This document shows, one piece after another, positions 5,881 to 64,000 of a stretch of 64,000 nucleotides of DNA. The notes under the pieces were generated by a model. It was not told the DNA's origin. It saw only the letters and a program-made list of their open reading frames with translations, and made no database searches. Location of the stretch: assembly GCA_965113315.1 (NCBI GenBank), contig OZ220372.1; one strand, 5' to 3'. Each line of letters starts with the position of its first letter. The stretch's first letter is position 1. This DNA is from Podarcis vaucheri (lineage: Eukaryota). The position numbers were made by a program, and so were the translations under genes.

Positions 5881-6317
5881 GTCCTGGAGACAGGACGGAT
5901 AACAAAAGAACCATTCACATTAGATTCACAGCCTTTAGAAGAAGCTCTTGCCTTCTCCCCCATCTGAAAGCTGGAATAGTTTGCATTTCTTGCCATCTAT
6001 TTTCCTCCATGCAGTTGTTTAAAGGTACATGCAATGCCTCCAATCACAGACAAAGTACCATACGAAGGCATATCCCCCTGGCACACTTTGGTGTGATTCC
6101 CACAGTTGCAGTATTACTTGTAGTATTTGCCACATTAAAAAAAAAAAATCGCTACAGGGTATACCAGTAGTTTCTCATGGAATGTAGCTGTTGTTTTTTA
6201 AACAGTGTATATTTATTCACTGAAAGGTACTTTTAGGATACTTTTTAGCCCCAAACCGCCACAAGGTGGCTTCCGACATATAAAAATACAATGTACACCA
6301 TCAAAACATCTAAAATA

Positions 6318-7399
6318 CAGTGGTGCCTCGCAAGACGAAATTAATTCGTTCCGCAAGTTTTTTCTTCTTGCGAGTTTTTCGTTTTGCAATGCACGGTTTC
6401 CCATAGGAATGCATTGAAAATCAATTAATGCGTTCCTATGGAAACCGCCTTCAGACCAGGTCCGGGGACAGTCTGTCCCCCGACCTCTTCTGAAGGCTGG
6501 GGGGGGGGGAACAAGGGCTTTTCTTCCCACGCCCAGCATTTTAAAAAACCCCGGGACAGCGAAGGACTTCTCCGCTGTCCGGGGCGATCTTAAAATGCTG
6601 GCGGGCGACATTTTAAAATCGCCCGGGACAGCGGAGGACTTCTCCGCTGTCCGGGGCGATGTAAAAGCCCCTGGGAAGGCAGGCAGGGGCTTGGACCTCT
6701 TCTGAAGGCGGGCGGGGGGCGAAAGGCTTTGCTCCCCACCGCCTGCCTTCCAAAGCCGTCCGGGACAGCGGAGAAACGTGCTGCCTTTCTCCACTCTCCC
6801 GGGAAGGCAGGCAGGGGGGAGCAAAGACTTTCGCCCTCCGCCCGCCTTCAGAAGAGGTCCTGGACCTCTTCTGAAGGCGGGCGGGGGGCAAAAGTCTTTG
6901 CCCCCCCCCCGCCTGCCTTCAAAAGCCGTCCGGGACAGCGGAGAAACGCGCTGCCTTTCTCCGCTCTCCCGGGAAGGCAGGCAGGGGGGAGCAAAGACTT
7001 TCGCCCCCGTCCGCCTTCAGAAGAGGTCCAGGACCTCTTCTGAAGGCGGGCGGGGGGCGAAAGTCTTTGCTCCCCCCCGCCTGCCTTCAAAAGCCGTCCG
7101 CGATAGCGGGAAGCGCTTCCCTGCTATCCCGGACTGCTTTTAAAATGCTGGCGGTGGGGAGCAAAGCCTTTCGGCCCCCGCCGGCCTTCCTGGACCTCTT
7201 CTGAAGGCCGGAGGGGGGAAAAGGCTTTGCTCCCCACCACCAGCATTTAAAAGAGGCCCCGGAGATTTCCCTATGGGCTTTCTTCTTGCGAAGCAAGCCC
7301 ATAGGGAAATTCGTCTTGCGAAGCGCCTCCAAAACAGAAAACCCTTTCGTCTTGCGGGTTTTCCGTCTTGCGAGGCATTCGTCTTGCGGGGTACCACTG
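6318..7399. mobile_element. Tc1/mariner-type MITE (family B, long copy) with internal palindromic tandem array
   Basis: TIR cagtggtgcctcgcaagacgaa / ttcgtcttgcggggtaccactg, TA flanks; termini match the 1645-1971 copy in opposite orientation. Confidence 0.9.
6693..7100. repeat. 169-bp GC-rich tandem repeat, each unit self-complementary
   Basis: Units start ggacctcttctgaaggcgg at 6693, 6862 and 7031; complete units end in the reverse complement ccgccttcagaagaggtcc. Confidence 0.9.
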
Positions 7400-7554
7400 T
7401 ACTAGCACAAATAACTGTAAGAACATCTGTAGGACACCACAGCAATGAAAGAACAATAAGAACAGCACTCAACCCAATATAATATCATTAAAATCAGGTC
7501 AAATTATTGAATCCCATTCAGCACCAATTCAGACAACAGAACCATGATATATAT

Positions 7555-7993: not shown

Positions 7994-8041
7994 GAACAGA
8001 CTGAAGAGACATCCTCACAAGAATCTGCAGAAGATGATTAG
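7994..8041 (+). CDS. HMGA2: HMGA2 terminal coding exon (acidic C-terminal tail, EQTEETSSQESAEDD*)
   Basis: Acceptor tttcag at 7988-7993, branch-like cactaat upstream, phase 0, 48 nt including stop; matches the recalled mammalian HMGA2 tail EETEETSSQESAEED*; followed by recognisable HMGA2 3'UTR; synteny with LLPH. Upstream exons lie outside the window. Confidence 0.95.
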   Translation, partial: EQTEETSSQESAEDD

Positions 8042-8061
8042 AAGACCACACATTGCAATTT

Positions 8062-10950
8062 CTACCTCATCAGCAGTTGGGTCTTTTGAAGGGAGAAGAC
8101 ACTGCCGTGACCACTTGCTTCTGTTGCCACAACCTTTCCACTTTGGCCTGAGGGGGGATGGGGAGGGGGGGAAATCAGATAACCTTAAAAAGGACTTATT
8201 AATCACCTTTGCTGTAATCCCTTCACTGCCCTGGTTTTAGTGAAACTGCTGTAACACAGGGGGACACAGATAATGATGCAACATTTAATTACTGTTTTCT
8301 CTTTTATTTTGCTTTAACCTACTAATAGTTTGTTTGAGCTGCTAAGTAAGGGTGAATGGGTCAGTAAATCTCTGAACTGGGTTTTAAGTCATTCACTGCA
8401 CTGCATATAAATAAGACTTTTGTAAAATATTAATTATAATGGGCATTCAAATAAGGAGGCCTTGGTGTCTGACACCAGTCCTTACAACACCTCTGACAAC
8501 CCACTCCCCTAGCTTAGTAATTTCCCTGTTTAGAACACCAAAGATAAGGATTAGATACTACTCTTTTTATAGCCTTGTTCTAGATTTGTGCTTGATTGGT
8601 TGATTTTTTTTAACATTACTGGTATTTCAAGATACATTGATGGCTGATATTTTTTCACTTAATTCAGCTGATATTCAGGAAAGAAAGCCACAAGAAAAAA
8701 AGGTACTTTTACTTTGCGAAAGGGAAAAAAACCTGACAAAGATACATTGTATATTCACTAATACACATATATCTGCAGAAGTAGTACTAAACAGAACTCA
8801 ACACACCTCTGTGGGAACACATTGGCGTCTCTTCAGGTAGACTACGCTTTCTGGGAAGCCTCTGTTGCTTACAGATGGTTGACAGCAAACCCTCTCTCAC
8901 AGCAGACATTTAACAGCTAAAATTTGAATTTAAAACAATACCTCAGAATTGTTCTGAATCATGGTCATAAACTGGAACCGAGGGCAAAGAGTCAAATTCT
9001 TCGTTTGACTTAACTCACTACTGTCGGTCCCGTTCTATTGTCTCTAAACAAATGGATCTCTGTTCTTAAATCACACATCTCAATGCAAGAGCCAACACCG
9101 TGTACCTCAAGTGAGCTTGTTATTACTTTTCAGCAATATACCTTGACATAGGATGGTTTGCTGGGCAGCTTTAACCCAGTTACATGTCTCCACCTTTTTC
9201 ACTCAAAGCAGCACTTTTCAGCCACAAATGCAATATTACCCCACTTTTCAATACTACCTCTGATACGTACCATTAACTCAACAGTCATATAAACATTTGC
9301 TGCTATAATCATGCAATGCAGATTATTATTATTGGGTAGGTAAACATTAATTTCTGCATTTCCCCCTTATTTCTACTTTTGTCACCTAATTTCAGCCAAG
9401 GAGACGATACTTTTAGTGTTTTTCAGCATAACCATGTAATTTCCCCCCTTTTTATGCCTTTACTCTGCTAAATTTCTATGTAATGTACCATTAACTTGAA
9501 TATATTTTTGTACCGAATTGCTCATAAGGTTTGCAAGGATAATTTTCTTCGATAACACTGCATGACAGGAAAAAAATAATAATTAACCGCAATGTTTAAA
9601 TATTACTGTCCAAGTTTGTACCTCAAATAATTTTTTTTAAGGAAATGGACTAGTTGATTGACAAAGACCTACCTCCAGACTATAAATGGAATGAACTTGT
9701 TGTTTCTTTCAACATTAGTTTTTGAGAAGATTGAAACATTTAGGACTGCAACAAATCCCTGATCAAAACTATTTTTTTGTAAATGAACTTTGTGGGAAAT
9801 GAATGCATTAATTACTTTCCTATTAAAAACAACCCTTCAAAGAAACTTGAATCTTTGTAGGTGGGAGGCAACAAGCTCAGCTTTTTGCATAATGCAATCA
9901 CGAATATGTGCGTGTGTTTTAAAAAACTAGTAGATTGTATGCGAATACTTTTCAAGTATTTTCCATGTATTTTTCACAAATGTGATTTTTTTAAAAAATA
10001 TGTGTCAACCAGATTTATTTTAAATGCTTCTTATGTAGAGTTTGTTTAATACTTCTTTCTCTTTCTCCCTTTCTACGTCTCTCACACAGCCTGCTTGCTA
10101 ACATGGTTTTACTATTTGGGCCAGGGGTAGTTTCTCAGGAAGGCTTTCTTCAGTATGACTCAAGTACTTAGCCAAATGCAACTAAGGAAAACTACTTCTT
10201 GGCTGCCTCACAATAGAGAACATTAAGACACAAGCGCCTCACTAAGGAACAAGAGTACTTATTGCTGTGGATCACCAAGAATGGAATTAGCGGCAGGGTA
10301 GGGATGGAATTGGCATCCTTGCATTACCAAGCTGCCTTATGGGCCCTAAGTCATGTCTATTCAAGCTGTTGCCCGGGATCAAAAGCACAGTGACTGTGCA
10401 TGGAGGCATTTTAGCCCCCTGAAAGGCCCTTCACTTTTTCCAAAAAGATTGCAAGGTGCTCTGGAGCAGCACCCCATGAGGCACAGTGGGTTCCTGTTTG
10501 AAGAAATTACCTAATTAATAGGTACACTGGGGCAGGACTTGATAACATGCTCTATTACCTCTGTCGTGGAGTTTTCAGATGCACACAGGCCACACTCCAA
10601 AACTCTTGTAAGTGTCCAAGGTGCACACGTAATCCATTCAGGAGGGGAGAATTTCTCTTCAGTTTTAGAGAGTGTTCTGAACACAAAAACGGGAAATCCC
10701 CGTGGAGAAATGCATTTGAGAGACTCGTTGAAGGGAATTAGGTAGCCCTTGGCAGCGTGGTATATTCCCTGTTCTGGGGCATCTGGATTGGTGTAACAGC
10801 ATGAGACGAAACAAATGTTATCAGTATATATGGGTCAGATATCAAACTCCATGGGACTTTACAGCTCTGATGAAATTAAATCTTATATTTTCTGTAATAT
10901 TGTAGAACAATCAAAATACATTACTACCTCTCAGGGTCTTCTATACCTCA
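8062..10950 (+). promoter_or_regulatory. let-7/miR-98 seed-match cluster in HMGA2 3'UTR
   Basis: 8mer CTACCTCA 8062-8069; TACCTCA at 8939, 9103, 9619, 10944; CTACCTC at 9254, 9669, 10924; 6mer TACCTC at 10556. HMGA2 is an established let-7 target. Confidence 0.9.
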
Positions 10951-11308
10951 TTTTTCAGACTGAAAAAAAACTGCTTGTGACCACTGAAACAGAAAGATCA
11001 TCATAAAAATTTATATATATATAGTTTATTTTTGTGGGAGATAAATTTTATAGGACTGTTCTTTGCTGTCATTGGTCACAGCTAAATAAGACTGGACATT
11101 AACCTTTCTGCCGTTTCTGCAAGAGGGATGTGCTTGCAGAAGAAAAGTATCAAGATGTATAACTACAGTTTACTTTTTCCTGTTTTCTTTGCCTGTCTCC
11201 TAACTCTTCGCTTTGTTATTCATATAGAGTTTCTGACTACGACTGTACTTTGAATTGCTTGCTTGTTGAACATGTTCTTTTAATGGATTATCACCGTCTG
11301 TTCAGCAC

Positions 11309-11388
11309 AATAAACATAATAGCCGCTGTAATCCCCATGTTGTTTGATTCCTAGCGTTTTGTCACAGCTCCATGAAATAAGCAATAAA
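11309..11388 (+). terminator. Two HMGA2 polyadenylation signals
   Basis: AATAAA at 11309-11314 and 11383-11388, at the end of the UTR-like conserved block. Confidence 0.8.
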
Positions 11389-15806: not shown

Positions 15807-16234
15807 ATACCCTCCAACATGTTCCCAGTGAAAATAGGGACGTCCTATTTCATTATTAAGGGATGCGGGTGGCGCTGTGGGTAAAACCTCAGCGCCTAGG
15901 ACTTGCCGATCGCATGGTCGGCGGTTCGAATCCCCGCGGCGGGGTACGCTCCCGTCGTTCGGTCCCAGCTCCTGCCTACCTAGCAGTTCGAAAGCACCCC
16001 TAAGTGCAAGTAGATAAATAGGTACCGCTTTATAGCGGGAAGGTAAACGGCGTTTCCGTGTGCTGCGCTGGTGCTGGCTCGCCAGAGCAGCTTCGTCATG
16101 CTGGCCACGTGACCCGGAAGTGTCTCCGGACAGCGCTGGCCCCCGGCCTCTTAAGCGAGATGGGCGCGCAACCCTAGAGTCGGACACGACTGGCCCATAC
16201 GGGCAGGGGTACCTTTACCTTTACCTTTACTATT

Positions 16235-16284
<50 letters not shown>

Positions 16285-16663: not shown

Positions 16664-16714
<51 letters not shown>

Positions 16715-16917
16715 GGTTTTGGTGTCTTCGGGTGTCTTCCCGTGTAAGAGTCGGGGTGTCTGTGCGACGTTTCGACGAGGTCTCACTCGTCATCTTCAGC
16801 CTGAAGATGACGAGTGAGACCTCGTCGAAACGTCGCACAGACACCCCGACTCTTACACGGGAAGACACCCGAAGACACCAAAACCTGCATTCCTGTACCC
16901 GTGAAAATCTACGAAAG

Positions 16918-16971
<54 letters not shown>
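16664..16971. mobile_element. Penelope-like element terminus with inverted duplication, embedded in (TA)n
   Basis: Perfect inverted repeat 16710-16799 / 16801-16890; unique tail cccgtgaaaatctacgaaagc; (TA)n on both sides; contains a minimal hammerhead motif typical of PLE pseudo-LTRs. Confidence 0.75.
16799..16836 (+). ncRNA. Minimal type I hammerhead ribozyme motif (mirror core on - strand at 16766-16799)
   Basis: CUGAAGA 16801-16807, stem II GACGAG/CUCGUC, GAAA 16827-16830, palindromic ACGU helix III, GUC site ending 16834; helix I only 2 bp. Confidence 0.7.
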
Positions 16972-18894: not shown

Positions 18895-20044
18895 TATGTT
18901 GCAACTGGTAGCATTAAAAGAGAAGCATCACCATGATCTTATACAGCAACTAGGTAGTTGCCTATGGGATTTCCAGACCTCTCAGTCTGCCCTGAAGTCT
19001 CCAGGTTTGCCTGGGTCCTTCCAGGGAACAGGTGAAGGGCCTGGATCTCCAAGTGAGTGGCTGCTTTTAATTTAATTTAATTTTTAAGAAGACTGTGCAT
19101 GCATCTTGCAAGCTTCACCCCTGCAGGATCTGACTGCAAGTTATAACACAAACATGCCGTGGGGAGTCTGCCCTCTTCTGCTCCTCACTTCCAATTAACC
19201 TCCATCTCCAGGGCCTGCTCATGACAACACCAGGAACCACCCTTAGGTCTCAGCTTTGGACCCTGAAATCACGGGACCTAGGATGCTCCTGACCTGTCAA
19301 TTCTAGTGGCCTCTGAACTGACACCTCTCTTTTTAGTTGCTCCCCGCAACAGATCAGAGACTAGGAGGGAAGAGAAGCTATCAGTCTACAGTATCTTTGC
19401 AACTTAAAGCTGATTTAGTGAGGTTCCTAAGAAATTTGTCCTAGGATCACCAGGGTTTTCCCCTGTCAAGGATACACCAGCTCCTTGCATGGGGAAACTT
19501 GACAAAATGTGAAACTATACTATCAAACCTATATTCATTTCTACAGCCACAGCAGATGCTGTTAATTTTCCAATAGCATACTCTTCCATTGACTCTCAAG
19601 GCAGATGGACGCCAACTGTCAAATATTATTTTGGGCCCTAGGGTTGCCATATGTCCGGTTATTATTATTTTTGTTGAAAGTTAATAACATTGCTACTAGC
19701 AATACATCACAGCTTCTATAGCCTACATACAGTAGGGGTATTTAAAATTAGAGTTGTCACAGCAATCCACAGTTAAAAGTAGAAGTCAGCAAATGTGTCC
19801 TCTTTCTTTCTCTTCAGAATATGGCAACCCTAATTTTAGCCAGGAAATAACTGTATGACAGGACTGATGGGGAGACTCTTGGCGAAGCAATGATACAGTT
19901 GCTTTACTGAATATCCCTACAACTCAGTTCCAGCACCTCTCAGGTGAACACTATTGCCATTCTAAGAGAACAAGGGAGGTGTTCATGGTGAGTTCCAGCA
20001 CCTCTGATTTTAGGAAAATAGCACTGCCTACAACCAAAACCTAG

Positions 20045-20387
20045 GGATGTGGGTGGCGCTGTGGGTTAAACCACAGAGCCTAGGACTTGCCGATCAGAAG
20101 GTTGGCAGTTCGAATACCAGTGACGGGGTGAGCTCCTGTTGCTTGGTCCCTGCTCCTGCCAACCTAGCAGTTCGAAAGCACGTCAAAGTGCAAGTAGATA
20201 AATAGGTACCACTCCAGCGGGAAGGTAAACGGCGTTTCCATGCACTGCTCTGGTTCGCCAGAAGCGGCTTAGTCATGCTGGCCACATGACCCGGAAGCTG
20301 TACGCCGGCTCCCTCGGCTAATAAAGCGAGACGAGCGCCGCAACCCCAGAATCGGCCACGACTGGACCTAATGGTCAGGGGTCCCTT
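20045..20387 (+). mobile_element. Sauria SINE
   Basis: Typical head and core; 16-bp TSD tacaaccaaaacctag. Confidence 0.92.
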
Positions 20388-23300
20388 TACAACCAAAACC
20401 TAGAACAGCTTTCCCTCACAAGTTACTTTCTAGATGTTTTGGACTACAATGACCATCAGTGCTAACAAGCAGCCCTGCTAGCTGGCTTTGATGGTGAAAC
20501 GGAGCTCCTAACACCCAGTCTTAGGTAGAAGGGAGTTGAGTGTTAATTTCTGCCAGCAACACATGAAAATCTAAATCCAAGATGGCGGGTAATAATAACA
20601 ATAATTACAAGAGGGTGATCAAAAGACACTTAACTGGACATTTGATTCCCTTTCACGGGTTTAACGTAATTTCATAGTGTATCTGCATGATACACTATTA
20701 GTAGACTTACACTGCAATCCAACACATGCTTACTAAGTAGTAAATCCAAAGAATAGCCTCCTTGCTATGCACTGACTTGTTCTACTATATTCTCTCTCTC
20801 CTTTCTTATTATTGCCACTCTTTATAATCCCTCCTCTTGTTTTATGTTCTTTTCCTCTGTTGAATTTTAATGCATTTTTGTATTTGTTGTTATAAACTGA
20901 ATGTGATTTGACAACTCCAAAAATAATAAAAATGGATTGCCTTGTTGGCTCAGACCAAAGTTCCATATAACCCAGTGGCCCGAATCCAACAGCAGCTAGC
21001 CAGATGCCTCTGAAAACCCATGACAAACAAAGTTGGAGAATATGATTACAAACTCCTGTTGTTTGCTGCCAGCATACTATACCGAGAAGGGTCTCAACAA
21101 CTCAGTGGCAAAGTGCAATCTTTGTCTACAGAAGGTTGCTGGTTCGATCCCAGTCATCTCCAATTAGAAGCAGTGAGATTTTTACTTATTTATTTCGGGC
21201 TTTTATAACCTGCTTTTATTTGAATCAATCCCAGAGCACAGTACAACATAATATATATATAAAATGTGTAATAAAACAAAACAATCTTTTTAAAAATTCA
21301 AACTGCAAAACAATAAACCAAAATTATACCACAAACACCATGAGAGCAACAAAACATCTCCTCCAGCCACTGAGTAAATAAAAATGCATTTACAAGGCAC
21401 CTAAAAGCCATCTGTTAAAGGCTTCTGTGCTTGAGACCATAGAGAATTATTGCCAGAATAGACAATATTGAGCTATACAGGCAAATTGTCTGAGCATTAA
21501 AAAATGTTTTTTTTTTTAAAAAAATATTTTTTATTGATTTTTCCATGTATACTTCTTCTAACAATATATATTTAACAATTTTGCATATTTTGACCCTCCT
21601 CCCCTGGACTTCCCTTATACTCCCGTTTTGTTTTATTTCCATATTGTTCACCCTGTGTATTGTTTCCCCAAAATTTTCTCAATACATATAGTCTTATTTT
21701 TTGTTGTATACAGTTGTCTACAACTGTATATAAATGTTTAAAACTGTTCTAACTGCATGCGTAAGCCTGTCATCGTCATAATCATAATCATTTTTCCACC
21801 ATGTTTATTTCTTCTTCAAAAGGGCAGATCTAAAAAGACCATTGCTGGTGCATATGGTAATACCTTTTTTAAAAAAAAATCAAACAAACTGAGAAACTTT
21901 CTCCTGAACTTGTCAGTGTTACTGGAATCCTAAGAGGAGGATTGCGATGCAAATATTCGTGGGGAAGGTGCTTGCCCGTCATCATGGAAACAGGTAGAAA
22001 TTATGGGGCAAAGGAGTCATGCTAGGGTCTGTTAAAAGTGACCAAACCAACACTTCTAGTTGTGGAGGGGAGCTTAAAATGTGAAAAAGTAATTCCCAAT
22101 ATGTTCAATACTATGGGGGGGGGAATAGTGGATGGAAAACTGTTGTAACTGCATTTCAGACAAAGCACATCTGTTCCCAGGTGGCACAAAAAAACTGCAG
22201 GAAGGTTGAGATGTAACTGCAAGCCCACCTTCTAGCATGGGCTTAATTGATTTCAAAACCCGATACAAGCACGCACGTTTGAAACTGTATTTCTGTCTTT
22301 CACACATGCAGACCAACTGCAGAGGAGAGACTCAAAAGTGCTTTAGTGGCATGTGTGAAATCAGTTTGGGCCTGCTTTATAGAATTAGAAAAATACTCTG
22401 CAGAAGCCAAGTTGACAGGAGACTAAATTAATATCAACCCTACTTTCATTGATATAATACTGTGAAAAGAAACTATAGTCTTGTTTTGTTGCAAACAAAC
22501 AAAAATGCCCTTTTGTTAAAGCTCCAGATCAAGGCCACATATGTTTAACCAGCCAGACTGAATTGCCACCTCCCTTTCCTACATGAAAATTCAAGTCTAA
22601 TTTAAAAATCCATAAGAAGATGGGCTTGGTCTTTTTTGTTTTTCAAATTAATTGCATATAAAGTGCCACTTTCCCCCCTACTGTAAATCAAGAGAACTCT
22701 GGTGTCTTTGGAATGAATTCCAAATAGTTGGTCTGGACATGAACTTCACAGTTCTTCCCTCCTCCATCCTGCTGACATTTTCCCATTAATTTCTTTTCCC
22801 CTTTCATCCATTCATTGGCTGATGAGTCTATAAATACACTTCATCTGCTTTTACTTTGCTTTCTAAGGACAAACCATTCCTAAACATGTTGTCTTGATTA
22901 CATTCAAAAGCAAAATCCTCCGATGTTTCTATGTTGGAGCGATAGGCTGAAACGTAACATTTTGTCTATTATGTCAGAGAGAAGTTTCAATGGGCAGTTT
23001 TATCATAATGTCAACAACGTAAATAACCTCATGCCGAAGAAATGCCATATGTGTTAAAGCTGTAAATATCAGTGCTGGCAGCCAAACCGAAGGGGGAGGA
23101 AGGGGTTTGGAGAGATAGAAAAATCAGCTGTATAGTCTCAGACGGTATTATTTTTCCCTGACCTCCTTATTCCACAAACCTCTGCTTTTGCCCATTCCTT
23201 CCTACATTCGGATAACAAATGGCAAATCTTTAAAGAGATAGTCAGGATAAAGAACATCTATATCTCATGCTGAACTTTTCTATCTCAGTGCATAACTTAC

Positions 23301-25012: not shown

Positions 25013-25262
25013 NNNNNNNNNNNNNNNNNNNNNNNNNNNNNNNNNNNNNNNNNNNNNNNNNNNNNNNNNNNNNNNNNNNNNNNNNNNNNNNNNNNNNNNN
25101 NNNNNNNNNNNNNNNNNNNNNNNNNNNNNNNNNNNNNNNNNNNNNNNNNNNNNNNNNNNNNNNNNNNNNNNNNNNNNNNNNNNNNNNNNNNNNNNNNNNN
25201 NNNNNNNNNNNNNNNNNNNNNNNNNNNNNNNNNNNNNNNNNNNNNNNNNNNNNNNNNNNNNN
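25013..25262. other. Assembly gap (250 N)
   Basis: Run of N. Confidence 1.
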
Positions 25263-25359
25263 CTTGAATAAAATATTGCAGGGGGGAAGCATGAGTAAAT
25301 CATAATGTGCACACAGTGTAAGCCTATATCTAACCCGCAGTTATGGAGAAGGCAAAGGT

Positions 25360-41735: not shown

Positions 41736-42339
41736 TTTGTTGTTGTTTAGTCATTTAGTCGTGTCCGACTCTTCATGACCCCATGGACCAGAGCACGCCA
41801 GGCACTCCTGTCTTCCACTGCCTCCCGCAGTTTGGTCAAACTCATGTTCATAGCTTCAAGAACACTGTCCAACCATCTCATCCTCTATCATCCCCTTCTC
41901 CTTGTGCCCTCAATCTTTCCCAACACCAGGGTCTTTTCCAGGGAGTCTTCTCTTCTCATGATGTGGCCAAAGTATTGGAGCCTCAGCTTCACAGTCTGTC
42001 CTTCCAGTGAGCACTCAGGTCTAATTTCCTTAAGAATAGATAGGTTTGATCTTCTTGCAGTCCATGGGACTCTCAAGAGTCTCCTCCAGCACCATAATTC
42101 AAAAGCATCAATTATTCGGCAATCAGCCTTCTTTATGGTCCAGCTCTCACTTCCATACATCACTACTGGGAAAACCATAGCTTTAACTATACGGACCTTT
42201 GTTGGCAAGGTGATGTCTCTTCTTTTTAAGATGCTGTCTAGGTTTGTCATTGCTTTTCTCCCAAGAAGCAGGCGTCTTTTAATTTCGTGACTGCTGTCAC
42301 CATCTGCAGTGATCATGGAACCCAAGAAAGTAAGATCTC
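41736..42339 (-). mobile_element. Bov-B (RTE) LINE, 5'-truncated
   Basis: Translates FLGSMITADGDSSHEIKRRLLLGRKAMTNLDSILK...VKAMVFPVVMYGSESWTIKK...DAFELWCWRRLLRVPWTARRSN; (CAA)n tail; TSD tcagatatatat. Confidence 0.95.
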
Positions 42340-43442
42340 TCAGATATATATAATCATTACTAAATGTGGCATAAGTAAGGTGGAACAGAATAGCACCATC
42401 CCAAAGGCATTTCAAACACCCTGGAGACATTTGTGCATCCGTGTAAAGCAAATTACCTGCTGTGCTGATAGGACTGTATCTAACCTGCTACATAAAAAGT
42501 AAAAAGGTAAAGGGCAGTCATGATTTCTAAGTGTACCTGCTTCTGGGCAAAAGGAATGGGGAGGGATTCAATCTCCAATGGAACAATCCTCCCTTTCTTG
42601 CCTTTCCCCACTGCACGCTGTCCTGTGAGTTCTTCCAACATGCCTGCTGACTGGGGTGGGGGGAAGAGGCAGGGGAAGCCCCCACTGCACTAGCAGAAGT
42701 CCTTGCATGGGCTTCTGCACGTGGGACAAGTTAATGGAATCTAGCCTATGGTCCCCATGTGGGCACCATGTTCAGTGTCCAGCCAACATATACAATTAAT
42801 GTGGACAGTGTGCGCGTCATGTTGCCAATGTGCAAAATGTTGCTAGCAATTCACATTCTCCAACATCACCCAGTGATTGTGCCTATCAGCCAGGCAATGT
42901 GCAGAATCGCCACTTCAACCTCTCGCATTAACTCCGACAAAGAGCAGATAGCAGAGATAGCATTGGGCCATGTGAATTAGTAACGTGGAGTCCCTCCCTA
43001 GCGATGAGCCACAGAGGGAAATGGAGTCTTGCGTATAACAGCAAGGGAATAGGATCATTTCCCTCTCCATAGTTTTGTTCAAAGAGAAGCTAAGTTTGGC
43101 ACCATGCCTTCAAATTGTGGTGAAGATTCCTATACCCTACAAATCTATAGTCTGAGAATTATCCCTTTGTTGAAAGCATACTCCAGAGATTCTTCAAAAT
43201 TATTACCAGCATATGGCACAGAGCTGAACTTCCTTGCTGTGCAGGAAATATTAAAGAGATCATCATTCCCCCCCACCACACAAAAAATTAAAATGGCAAT
43301 GAAATGGTTTGGAAATGCTAATTCAAGTTAACAGTCTTGGGCAATTAAAGTATCTTAAATTATCTCTAAATTTTCTGTTTTATTGCTGCAAATTTATAAA
43401 AGGACCCACACTGAACTCTCTAAATATTATGTGTGTGTGTGA

Positions 43443-45848: not shown

Positions 45849-46203
45849 GGGACGCAGGTGGTGCTGTGGGTTAAACTACAGAGCCTAGGACTTGCTGATC
45901 AGAAGGTCAGCGGTTCGAATCCCCGTGACGGGGTAAGCTCTCGTTGCTCGGTCCCAGCTCCTGCCAACTTAGCAGTTCGAAAGCAGATCAAAGTGCAAGT
46001 AGATAAATAGGTACCGCTCCGGCAGGAAGGTAAACGGCATTTCCGTGCGCTGCTCTGGTTCGCCAGAAGGGGTTTAGTCATGCTGGCCACATGACCCGGA
46101 AGCTGTACGCCAGCTCCCTTGGCCAATAAAGCGAGATGAGCACCGCAACCCCAGAGTCGGTCACGACTGGACCTAATGGTCAGGGGTCCCTTTATCTTTA
46201 CCT
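45849..46203 (+). mobile_element. Sauria SINE, full length
   Basis: Typical head, B-box, core and tail; TSD atgtattgcctc. Confidence 0.92.
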
Positions 46204-53563: not shown

Positions 53564-53601
53564 GTATCTGAAGAAGTGTGCATGCACACGAAAGCTCATA
53601 C
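53564..53601 (+). ncRNA. Minimal type I hammerhead ribozyme motif in a short Penelope-like 3' end (~53555-53645)
   Basis: Helix I GUAU/AUAC, CUGAAGA 53568-53574, stem II GUGUG-CAUG-CACAC, GAAA 53590-53593, palindromic AGCU helix III, CUC site ending 53597. Confidence 0.75.
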
Positions 53602-55949: not shown

Positions 55950-57910
55950 ATTTGGAAACAGGGTTATATGTGATCATGCTTAGATCACCTCTTGGTGAAA
56001 TTTGGACTTGCAGCGCTTTGACCCTCCCTCACCACCACTGGGGTATGGAGGGTGGACAGATTTGGAAGGTCTGCAGCTGATGACTAATACAATGAATTCC
56101 TTAATGCTCCTGGTGATTTTTCAGTGGATAGAGCAGGTGACCTGGTTGAAGCCCTTTCTCCCTGTTGAACACAGAGATGCACTGAACTCTTGGCATCACC
56201 ACCCCCCAAGCACCCTCTCCAGCACTAAAAGCCTGTTCTGCCCCTTGGTATACCAAGGAACGAAGGCTGATAAAACAAGATGAGCATAGGTGGCAAAAAG
56301 CAGGCTGTGAAGCCAAATGAGCATGAGAGCACGGTTCTGGCTGCTGTGCGGCGGTGAGGGGAGTGGAACTTTTTAAATATTGTTGAGGTCCTGCTCACAT
56401 CTCCTCCAGGAAATGGAGCTTCAGGAGTGCACTTTAGTTTGATTCCATTGCACTTTGAGGATAGAACCACTCCCCTCAAGAGTGATTTTGAAATTTATTG
56501 CAGACTCCAGGAAAGTATTCGGCGCAGTATCTACTGTGACACCATGGCATCAGGTTCTCTTGATATAGCCTAATGTCATGGCTAAGGTGCTTGCTATTGT
56601 GTGCCCATTTTTTGTCTTGCTCCTTCTGACTTATTAAAGGGGTATGGCTAGGAGGACAACACGTCCTTGCAGGAGCATGTGGTCCCAGCCTTCTTGAAAA
56701 AAGGCTACGTTTTGACCTGAAAAAGCTCAGTGACCCTTTAATTCTCCCTTGGGTGTGAGGGAAGGTGATTGAGGGGGTCATGGTGAGACTGTTGCAAGCA
56801 CTCTTGGATGAAAGAGTATCTTGATGCATTTTAGTCAAGGTTCAGGCCTTATTACTGAATCAGCCCTGTTGTTCTGATAAATGGCCGCCTTCAAAAGGAC
56901 AGGGGGAATGTGCATTATTTTTACTTGAACTCTCCATGGGTTGCAGTACAATGGCATTTCCCTGAGCTGACTCATTGGTTCCAGTTCTATCTTCAGGATC
57001 AGTGATTCATTTTTGGTTCCCTGGCACATGTGCTGCAAGGTACCTTGGTCTCTTTAGCTTATATATGAAGCTGTTGGCAGTGATTATTAGATTTGGGGCC
57101 TATTTCTCTAGCCTAGCATCTGAAGCAGGAGAGGCCATGCAAGCCCTCGACCAGTAGCTGAACTCAGTGATGGACTAGATGAGGGCCAGCAAAGAAAGCT
57201 TGAATTCTGGCAAGACAGGGGGATTGTGAACTGAGTCTGAATAATTGGTCAACTGCTTGCTTTGGATGGAGCTGTACTCAGGTTCTAGCTTGTGGGTGTT
57301 CCTGGATCCATCTTTGGCACCAACAGCGCAGGTGACCTCAGCAGTTAAAAGGGGTAAAGGGGACCCTGACCATTAGGTCCAGTCGTGCCCAACTCTGGGG
57401 TTGCGGCGCTCATCTCGCTTTATTGGCTGAGGGAGCCGGCATACAGCTTCCGGGTCATGTGGCCAGCATGACTAAGCCGCTTCTGGCGAACCAGAGCAGC
57501 GCACGGAAACGCCGTTTACCTTCCCGCTGGAGTGGTAGCTATTTATCTACTTGCACTGCGTGCTTTCAAACTGTTAGGTTGGCAGGAGCTGGGACCGAGC
57601 AACGGGAGCTCACCCCGTCATGGGGATTCGAAACGCCGACCTTCTGATTGGCAAGTCCTAGGCTCTGTGGTTTAACCCACAGCGCCACCCACATCCCGTG
57701 TCTCGCCCTCAGCAGTTAGGAATTCCTCTAAACAGCTTCACCTGGTATGACAGCTATGGCTATTTCTGAACTTGGACTGCCATCCATGCACTGGCAATCT
57801 CCATGTTGGATTACTGCATGGTGTTCTGTGGGACAGCCTCTGAGGCTGACCAGTGAGCTGCAGCCTAGTACAAAATGCAGCAGCTTGATGGCTCATGTTC
57901 AACATGTCTG
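55950..57910 (+). mobile_element. Highly degraded L2-type LINE remnant (boundaries approximate)
   Basis: 3' part catgcactggcaatctccatgttggattactgca...ctgcagcctagtacaaaatgcagcagc resembles the L2 HAL..SRLDYCN...LQLVQNAAAR motif; interrupted by a SINE. Confidence 0.55.
57348..57706 (-). mobile_element. Sauria SINE, full length
   Basis: Reverse complement of the 20045 copy; TSD cctcagcagtta. Confidence 0.92.
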
Positions 57911-63557: not shown

Positions 63558-63919
63558 GGACGCGGGTGGCGCTGTGGGTAAAAGCCTCAGCGCCAGGGCT
63601 TGCCGATCAAAAGGTCGGCGGTTCGAATCCCCGCGGCGGGGTGCGCTCCCGCTGCTCGGTCCCAGCGCCTGCCAACCTAGCAGTTCGAAAGCACCCCCGG
63701 GTGCAAGTAGATAAATAGGTACCGCTTACCAGCGGGAAGGTAAACAGCGTTCCGTGTGCTGCGCTGGCTCGCCAGATGCAGCTTTGTCACGCTGGCCACG
63801 TGACCCGGAAGTGTCTCCGGACAGCGCTGGCCCCCGGCCTCTTGAGTGAGATGGGCGCACAAACCCCAGAGTCTGTCAAGACTGGCCCGTTCGGGCAGGG
63901 GTACCTTTACCTTTACCTT
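63558..63919 (+). mobile_element. Sauria SINE, full length, CpG-intact
   Basis: Typical head, B-box, core, (ACCTTT)n tail; TSD tacattcactcaa. Confidence 0.93.
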
Positions 63920-64000
63920 TACATTCACTCAAACGCACAAAATGAGAATGCTGCGTTGATTTTGGTCATGCACGAGAGTATTGCTTGAGGGAATGGATAT

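Follow-up and report, generated by a model that had tools for sequence, protein, structure and literature searches.

A head-to-head, non-coding stub of a Penelope/Poseidon-type element between TA repeats of a lizard genome, likely recent and likely formed by cDNA fold-back

What kind of element leaves a perfect palindrome between two TA repeats of a lizard genome, and how was the palindrome made? Here, we report the analysis of such a locus in Podarcis vaucheri, within a stretch of 64,000 nucleotides that was analysed as a whole (the window, 64 kb). The arms at 16710-16799 and 16801-16890 are 100% reverse-complementary with the single nucleotide C16800 between them, pairing stops at 16709/16891, and eight CpG were counted in each arm; the 90-bp perfect palindrome with a 1-nt spacer, the many CpGs per arm and the (TA)n bracketing (16665-16710 and 16921-16970), all of which had been read from the letters at the outset, are borne out. 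No other perfect palindrome of the 64-kb window has arms >23 nt with a spacer of at most 10 nt, two-letter repeats excluded. The whole mirror-image element is 212 bases long and asymmetric, with 31 nt (16891-16921) on the right side only, a tail that the original prediction had missed. The inverted copy is 94 nt long and the direct copy 125 nt, both without ORF body. Unique flanks outside the element are not mirrored, no further copy of it occurs elsewhere in the window, and the target-site duplication (TSD) is hidden by (TA)n at both sides. The features are the following (PLE, Penelope-like element).

16665..16710, no strand: left (TA)n tract, the likely target microsatellite
16710..16803, minus strand: inverted tail-less copy of the element end, ending at ORF +84 and overlapping the direct copy by 7 nt
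16766..16799, minus strand: mirror hammerhead core without helix I
16797..16803, no strand: native CAG-C-CTG micro-hairpin at the turn, with 3-bp microhomology
16797..16921, plus strand: direct copy of the pLTR 3' end, 5'-truncated and carrying the tail
16799..16836, plus strand: minimal type-I hammerhead motif with a helix I of 2 bp
16807..16923, plus strand: first 39 codons of the putative PLE ORF, with its ATG (16807-16809) where stem II begins and a frame that runs into the TA tract
16891..16921, plus strand: one-sided 31-nt tail, ending at ORF +115
16921..16970, no strand: right (TA)n tract

Smaller perfect palindromes with a 1-nt spacer are found inside a GC-rich repeat (period ~169 bp) at 6480-7260 of the window, one centred at 6860 with 23-nt arms and one centred at 7029 with 19-nt arms; the flanks of this repeat near 6314-6393 and 7279-7402 match 1896-1975 and 1642-1766.

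The palindrome had been said to carry a hammerhead core on each strand. Our minimal type-I hammerhead descriptor, which we wrote ourselves from the consensus in PMC4209133 Fig S3, matched the window at 16801 (+), at 16799 (-) and at an unrelated 53568 (+), and matched none of 40 first-order Markov sequences of 64 kb. Both strands have the core, as claimed; helix I, however, counts 2 bp on the plus strand and 0 bp on the minus strand, where G stands opposite G at 2.1/1.1 and no closing pair is present. On the plus strand, the core starts at 16801 and is followed by an extra U16808, helix II (16809-16814/16821-16826), GAAA (16827-16830) and a loopless, palindromic helix III, with cleavage predicted 3' of C16834; this is the one copy in which core nucleotides, helix II, palindromic helix III and the closing pair of helix I are all present, and it fits the consensus row of PMC4209133 Fig S3. 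The metazoan PLE minimal hammerheads in the portion of PMC4209133 available to us share with it the common core, the extra nucleotide before helix II, G10.1-C11.1, a 6-bp helix II and a loopless palindromic helix III, and motif pairs on opposite strands are reported there as well; their helix I usually has 3-5 bp, with 2 bp given for D. virilis, Culex and Oikopleura PLEs, and the window hammerhead is not among the rows compared. Scoring with hammerhead models, which had been suggested as a check, gave nothing at the element: Rfam returned no hammerhead family at gathering threshold, nor any among 30 matches at E up to 10. Its miRNA matches were dismissed as generic hairpin or TA matches below their own cut-offs. 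A second minimal type-I hammerhead lies at 53564-53601 (+), with a helix I of 4 bp, a helix II of 5 bp and a palindromic helix III; by eye it resembles the turtle row of PMC4209133 Fig S3, in the portion available, and is likely the end of a different PLE family.

The parentage of the element was approached from its ORF. Briefly, a full-library phmmer search with the 38-aa ORF start against 1.84 billion proteins gave two matches at E up to 0.001, P0002 and P0003. P0002 had the better score and was rejected as compositional, being a repetitive stick-insect protein that matches residues 6-24 fifteen times. P0003 aligns from its first Met with the entire 38-residue query at 68% identity (E 1.5e-4) and is 65% identical to P0004 from Crotalus (E 8.5e-64); compared directly, the window peptide (P0001) and the N-terminus of this snake PLE are identical at 23/39 residues (59%). 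A search with P0004 found 398 long proteins, and nearly all of the 120 listed have an RT domain, including P0018 from Anolis and P0022 from Podarcis. P0022 has RVT_1, DKG, YVDD and a GIY-C..C-YIG endonuclease, the GIY-YIG match being 19.8 bits and thus below the Pfam cut-off of 22.6, and its gene model is without the N-terminus; the start of P0018 agrees by eye with the ORF of Poseidon_Ac (PAc) as printed in PMC11167929. This chain to RT and GIY-YIG proteins supports the PLE origin that the original prediction had proposed. We therefore read the element as the end of an EN+ Penelope-like element, with the ORF linked solely through the homology chain; please note that its first step rests on 38 residues, which weighs against the explanation that we favor below. 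Two other approaches gave no relative: a word-index search with the 41-aa ORF start returned two candidates, none of them scored, and pattern scans for relatives in metagenome (two), viral (one) and prokaryote (one) contigs gave 0 matches.

The CX2-5CxxC linker that Neptune and Nematis carry between RT and EN is absent in 65/65 homologues matching the GIY-C..C-YIG pattern (120 examined), P0022 and P0018 among them, which fits Poseidon and not Neptune. Neptune had been our first guess from the TA target and was dropped in view of the PAc anatomy, the ORF alignment and the linker-less homologues. The putative Penelope/Poseidon-type assignment draws on the missing linker in homologues and on PAc-like anatomy. 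In the literature within reach, from which most subscription papers and some supplements fell out, we found no description of this family, and the element sequence is absent from the PLE-paper supplements searched.

Comparison with PAc of Anolis carolinensis (PMC11167929, the portion available) is informative. In PAc, as here, the ORF ATG lies at the start of hammerhead stem II, and the cut falls 26 nt after the codon versus a predicted 25 here. Reverse transcription of PAc starts at 111-118, and the element here ends at +115, inside that range; the paper assigns the tail to the stretch between two RT start sites. Both have a tail and an AT-rich target, which here is (TA)n, and the E-x-L-R-x-x-I motif is kept at the ORF position where the copy here ends. 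PAc is a different family, however: the N-terminal peptides align poorly outside the motif, Crotalus P0004 and Podarcis P0022 are nearer among the named relatives, and the 2-bp helix I and the 212-bp stub are both unlike PAc. The arrangement itself has precedents. The inverted 5' duplication that had been invoked as a known PLE pattern is supported by EN+ PLE inverted pLTR insertions in the available portions of PMC3846280 and PMC8557442, where an inverted 5'-truncated copy also stands beside a direct copy, with a junction overlap of 15 bp versus 7 here, a 31-bp tail at one end in both and a microsatellite target that hides the TSD as it does here; the locus here differs from them in being a stub without ORF body. 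For rotifer Penelope, an overlapping inverted pLTR and a 31-bp tail are described and self-priming at palindromic junctions is proposed. Animal non-LTR retrozymes (10.64898/2026.07.22.740005) are likewise pLTR-derived, hammerhead-bearing and non-coding. They are direct tandem units, in contrast to the one inverted pair of one-and-a-half copies here; a retrozyme was ruled out, since it needs at least two direct tandem units each with a hammerhead, and the window holds one inverted pair and no second copy.

The ends of native family copies were then read from public sequencing runs. Four of the 24 runs listed were compared, X1, X2 and X5 (DNA) and X23 (RNA); X1 and X2 share a species label, X5 represents a third species and X23 a related species, and X1 is possibly the sample of the assembly itself. 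Over the element, contig depth sums to 1e5-1e6, versus 17-50 on the unique left flank; depth is not copy number, but the abundance of the family is clear. The agreement of native copies with the window reaches back to 16797 and ends there (6 contigs in X1, 31 contigs in X5 and 67 reads in X23, with 24 of 615 rows listed), so that 16797-16800 is native and the direct copy spans 16797-16921; the overlap between this copy and the inverted one is the 7-nt micro-hairpin. The idea that the inversion had trimmed helix I to 2 bp does not hold, since both pairs and the following A.A mismatch are native. By eye, native copies have a UCUGU further upstream that could pair, over a bulge of 27 nt, with 16837-16841; at the locus here this pairing is lost. 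At the other end, six X1 contigs stop at the 16890 equivalent and then run into (AT)n, which makes the tail-less end a native family end; both ends of the element are thus native to the family. Head-to-head junctions at 16767/16819 and 16779/16814 are also found in X1 (2 of the 15 joints listed of 70), the latter within helix II, and the turn is therefore not tied to the 5' edge of the ribozyme as had been thought. Upstream of 16797 in native copies, a frame can be followed by eye without a stop codon across the hammerhead until it closes with a TGA at 16815-16817; in tandem copies, consecutive ORFs may therefore overlap, the end of one with the start of the next.

In X1, the window alleles account for about 75% (16837) and 96% (16848) of the depth; their share is about 0% in X2 and 1-3% in X5. 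Dominance in only one of the three DNA runs indicates that the subfamily is likely young, and this run-restricted pattern supports the youth claimed for the locus in the sense of a likely young, lineage-restricted subfamily. The alleles at 16837, 16838, 16848 and 16873 differ sharply between X1, X2 (of the same species label) and X5, which suggests separate recent bursts.

How, then, was the head-to-head structure made? We favor, with moderate confidence, a non-coding head-to-head Penelope/Poseidon-type stub between TA repeats that is likely recent and likely arose by fold-back self-priming of the cDNA. The endonuclease of the element would have nicked AT-rich DNA, as is known for Anolis Poseidon, and reverse transcription would have started inside the ORF near +115 on uncleaved RNA; the end point at +115 and the passage through the predicted cut site can be read directly from the locus. 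The cDNA halts after 125 nt at 16797, an end point that is likewise seen, and its 3' end may then have paired via the native CAG/CTG, with the RT copying its own cDNA back to +84. Such self-copying would yield identical arms and a one-sided tail. The end points, the overlap and the arm identity are observed, and nicking, fold-back and resolution are the steps that we infer. All three known junctions (that of the window and the two of X1) have short loops, with stops 4-14 nt apart, which favors fold-back. It is not without difficulties: a 1-nt loop on a 3-bp stem is sterically unfavorable, which leaves a 2-bp stem closed by a 3-nt loop as the one structure able to form, 16767/16819 has no microhomology by eye, and this comes from the 15 joints listed of 70.

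The chief competitor is twin priming, in which a dimeric PLE protein would nick both target strands and two cDNAs, from +115 and +84, would join via CAG/CTG. PAc cleaves and extends both strands, has two adjacent start sites and is predicted to be a dimer (PMC11167929, the portion available), and under this route the one-sided tail needs no trimming and the 1-nt loop is not required. Nothing would oblige two independent cDNAs, however, to stop as close as 4-14 nt to each other, as they would have done at all three junctions; the arms also share every subfamily allele, a point of little weight as the subfamily is the majority in X1. We regard twin priming as rather unlikely. A plain insertion that was mirrored later by repair or replication fold-back, or older arms homogenised by gene conversion, would explain the perfect identity of the arms, and TA tracts, which are fragile, lie on both sides of the element. 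The mirror ends exactly at a native family end (16890) and spares the tail, however, the unique flanks are unmirrored, and the alleles are those of a run-restricted, likely young subfamily, all of which makes later mirroring or conversion quite improbable.

An assembly or library artefact, i.e., a fold-back chimera, has to be weighed as well. No read or contig over the palindrome centre is among the 24 of 31,871 pieces listed, and the right flank has zero depth in all four runs, for which a record filter is possibly responsible; both observations also count against the fold-back explanation. In X2 and X5, the left flank is partly covered only and contigs break at TA tracts, and PLE inverted structures are described as troubling assemblers in the portions of the literature available. 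An artefact, on the other hand, would be expected to include mirrored flanking DNA and to disregard the native ends, both of which are kept here, and X1 contigs contain two further head-to-head joints of the family. We consider it very improbable.

Does the hairpin have a function where it lies? The upstream gene, given for context only, is as follows.

7994..11388, plus strand: final coding exon, with 16 codons behind an AG, and the 3' UTR, with AATAAA at 11309 and 11383

This gene resembles HMGA2. Four of the window's six plus-strand matches to the let-7 seed motif lie within it, at 8062-10924. The element lies ~5.3 kb past the likely poly(A) signals, so a selected regulatory hairpin might be imagined, in which HMGA2 readthrough feeds dsRNA or siRNA silencing of the family or the ribozyme aids transcription termination. 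A transcript would form a roughly 90-bp duplex of the ADAR-substrate kind that hides the core, with a predicted folding energy of -191.8 kcal/mol; the masking of the core proposed in the original prediction is supported by the fold, the pair probability of helix II being 0.00 in the hairpin versus 0.97-0.99 in a lone sense copy. The perfect duplex predicted, the likely editing of family RNA described below and the small RNAs of rotifer Penelope (literature, portions available) all fit such a role. Set against it are the subfamily, likely too young for selection, the 14 additional A(A/T)TAAA hexamers that lie from 11383 up to the element, the masked core and the little that a single stub would add within a very large family; we therefore hold selection for regulation to be highly unlikely. 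Later repair or conversion, artefact and regulatory hairpin all fit worse than fold-back and twin priming. Under the fold-back explanation, the hammerhead would be a pLTR passenger without a role at the locus.

The hairpin had also been suggested as an ADAR substrate, and X23 bears on this at family level. About 12% of this run was read and 794 reads aligned, with strandedness not on record and no DNA of the same animal. Family RNA is present in both orientations. C replaces the species' T only in first-mate-plus reads at six sites (40 of 86 rows listed):

16815, T>C: 11/40 versus 1/56 on the other strand
16822, T>C: 17/40 versus 0/59 on the other strand
16838, T>C: 18/34 versus 1/55 on the other strand
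16852, T>C: 9/31 versus 0/60 on the other strand
16853, T>C: 12/31 versus 1/60 on the other strand
16854, T>C: 13/31 versus 0/60 on the other strand

Fisher p values for this bias range from 2e-4 to 1e-8, which is optimistic because reads are not independent, and three control sites other than T>C show no strand bias. Over the whole aligned stretch, A>G changes are listed at 18 places and T>C at 17 in X23, versus 5 and 11 in the DNA of X5. In a usual stranded library, the T>C would be A>G on antisense RNA, and the highest site is in a UAG context. Against editing, 16822 has a disfavoured 5' G, T16853C is found at 3% of X5 depth, and T16822C stands in one X1 contig. The strand-specific T>C in family RNA is likely ADAR editing. 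By the depth table, the edited reads appear to include the tail and would come from copies other than the tail-less-arm kind. The ADAR idea is thus supported as likely editing, in another species and at family level only, and it is already published for lizard Penelope: PMC5625713 reports heavy A-to-I editing at over 40,000 sites, and PMC10636886 heavy editing in Xenopus tropicalis too. Penelope RNA is a major ADAR target in both; in the available portions of these two papers, editing is not tied to built-in head-to-head palindromes. In the literature within our reach, we found nothing that connects editing in lizards with head-to-head junctions of PLEs. RNA ends do not pile up at the predicted cut site in X23, the same as in PAc (PMC11167929, portion available), which says little on self-cleavage. 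X23 has no reads on the unique flanks of the locus; the species may lack the insertion, which makes this uninformative for readthrough. A search of public runs listed no RNA run as a holder.

The locus is unexceptional, following an insertion pattern that is known already, and the hairpin that any RNA from it would form is of a kind known to be edited in lizards. On its own it carries little weight; what makes it useful is that PLE integration has left a clean footprint in vivo, with both arm ends in agreement with the two-start-site model of Anolis Poseidon and the microhomology preserved at the junction. In the portion available, PMC8557442 names the formation of PLE inverted repeats and the choice of microsatellites as open, and a young high-copy family allows a test by counting. 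The locus also suggests a structural origin for the heavy editing by ADAR that Penelope RNA undergoes in lizards. As a tentative proposal, more doubtful than probable, a Poseidon subfamily may be bursting now in one lizard lineage and building perfect hairpins into many of its insertions, the RT folding back at micro-hairpins that are native within and beside the ribozyme, with arms ending at the two RT start sites; built-in palindromes, and not chance neighbor pairs, would then explain why, of the LINE-class repeats of lizards, it is Penelope that is massively A-to-I edited. If true, thousands of young junctions would give a direct in vivo test of fold-back versus twin priming, and a (TA)n-targeting PLE would exist without the Zn-finger linker proposed to give that bias.

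Other repeats of the window were recorded along the way. Copies of a ~350-bp SINE-like repeat, 79-92% alike, lie at 15860-16230, 20044-20390, 45849-46194, 57354-57697 and 63558-63922, the first flanked by a 14-bp direct repeat (15845-15858 and 16230-16243). An assembly gap of 250 N lies at about 25020-25270, and an ORF fragment at 41751-42487 is presumably the C-terminal part of a non-LTR RT of RTE/BovB-like type.
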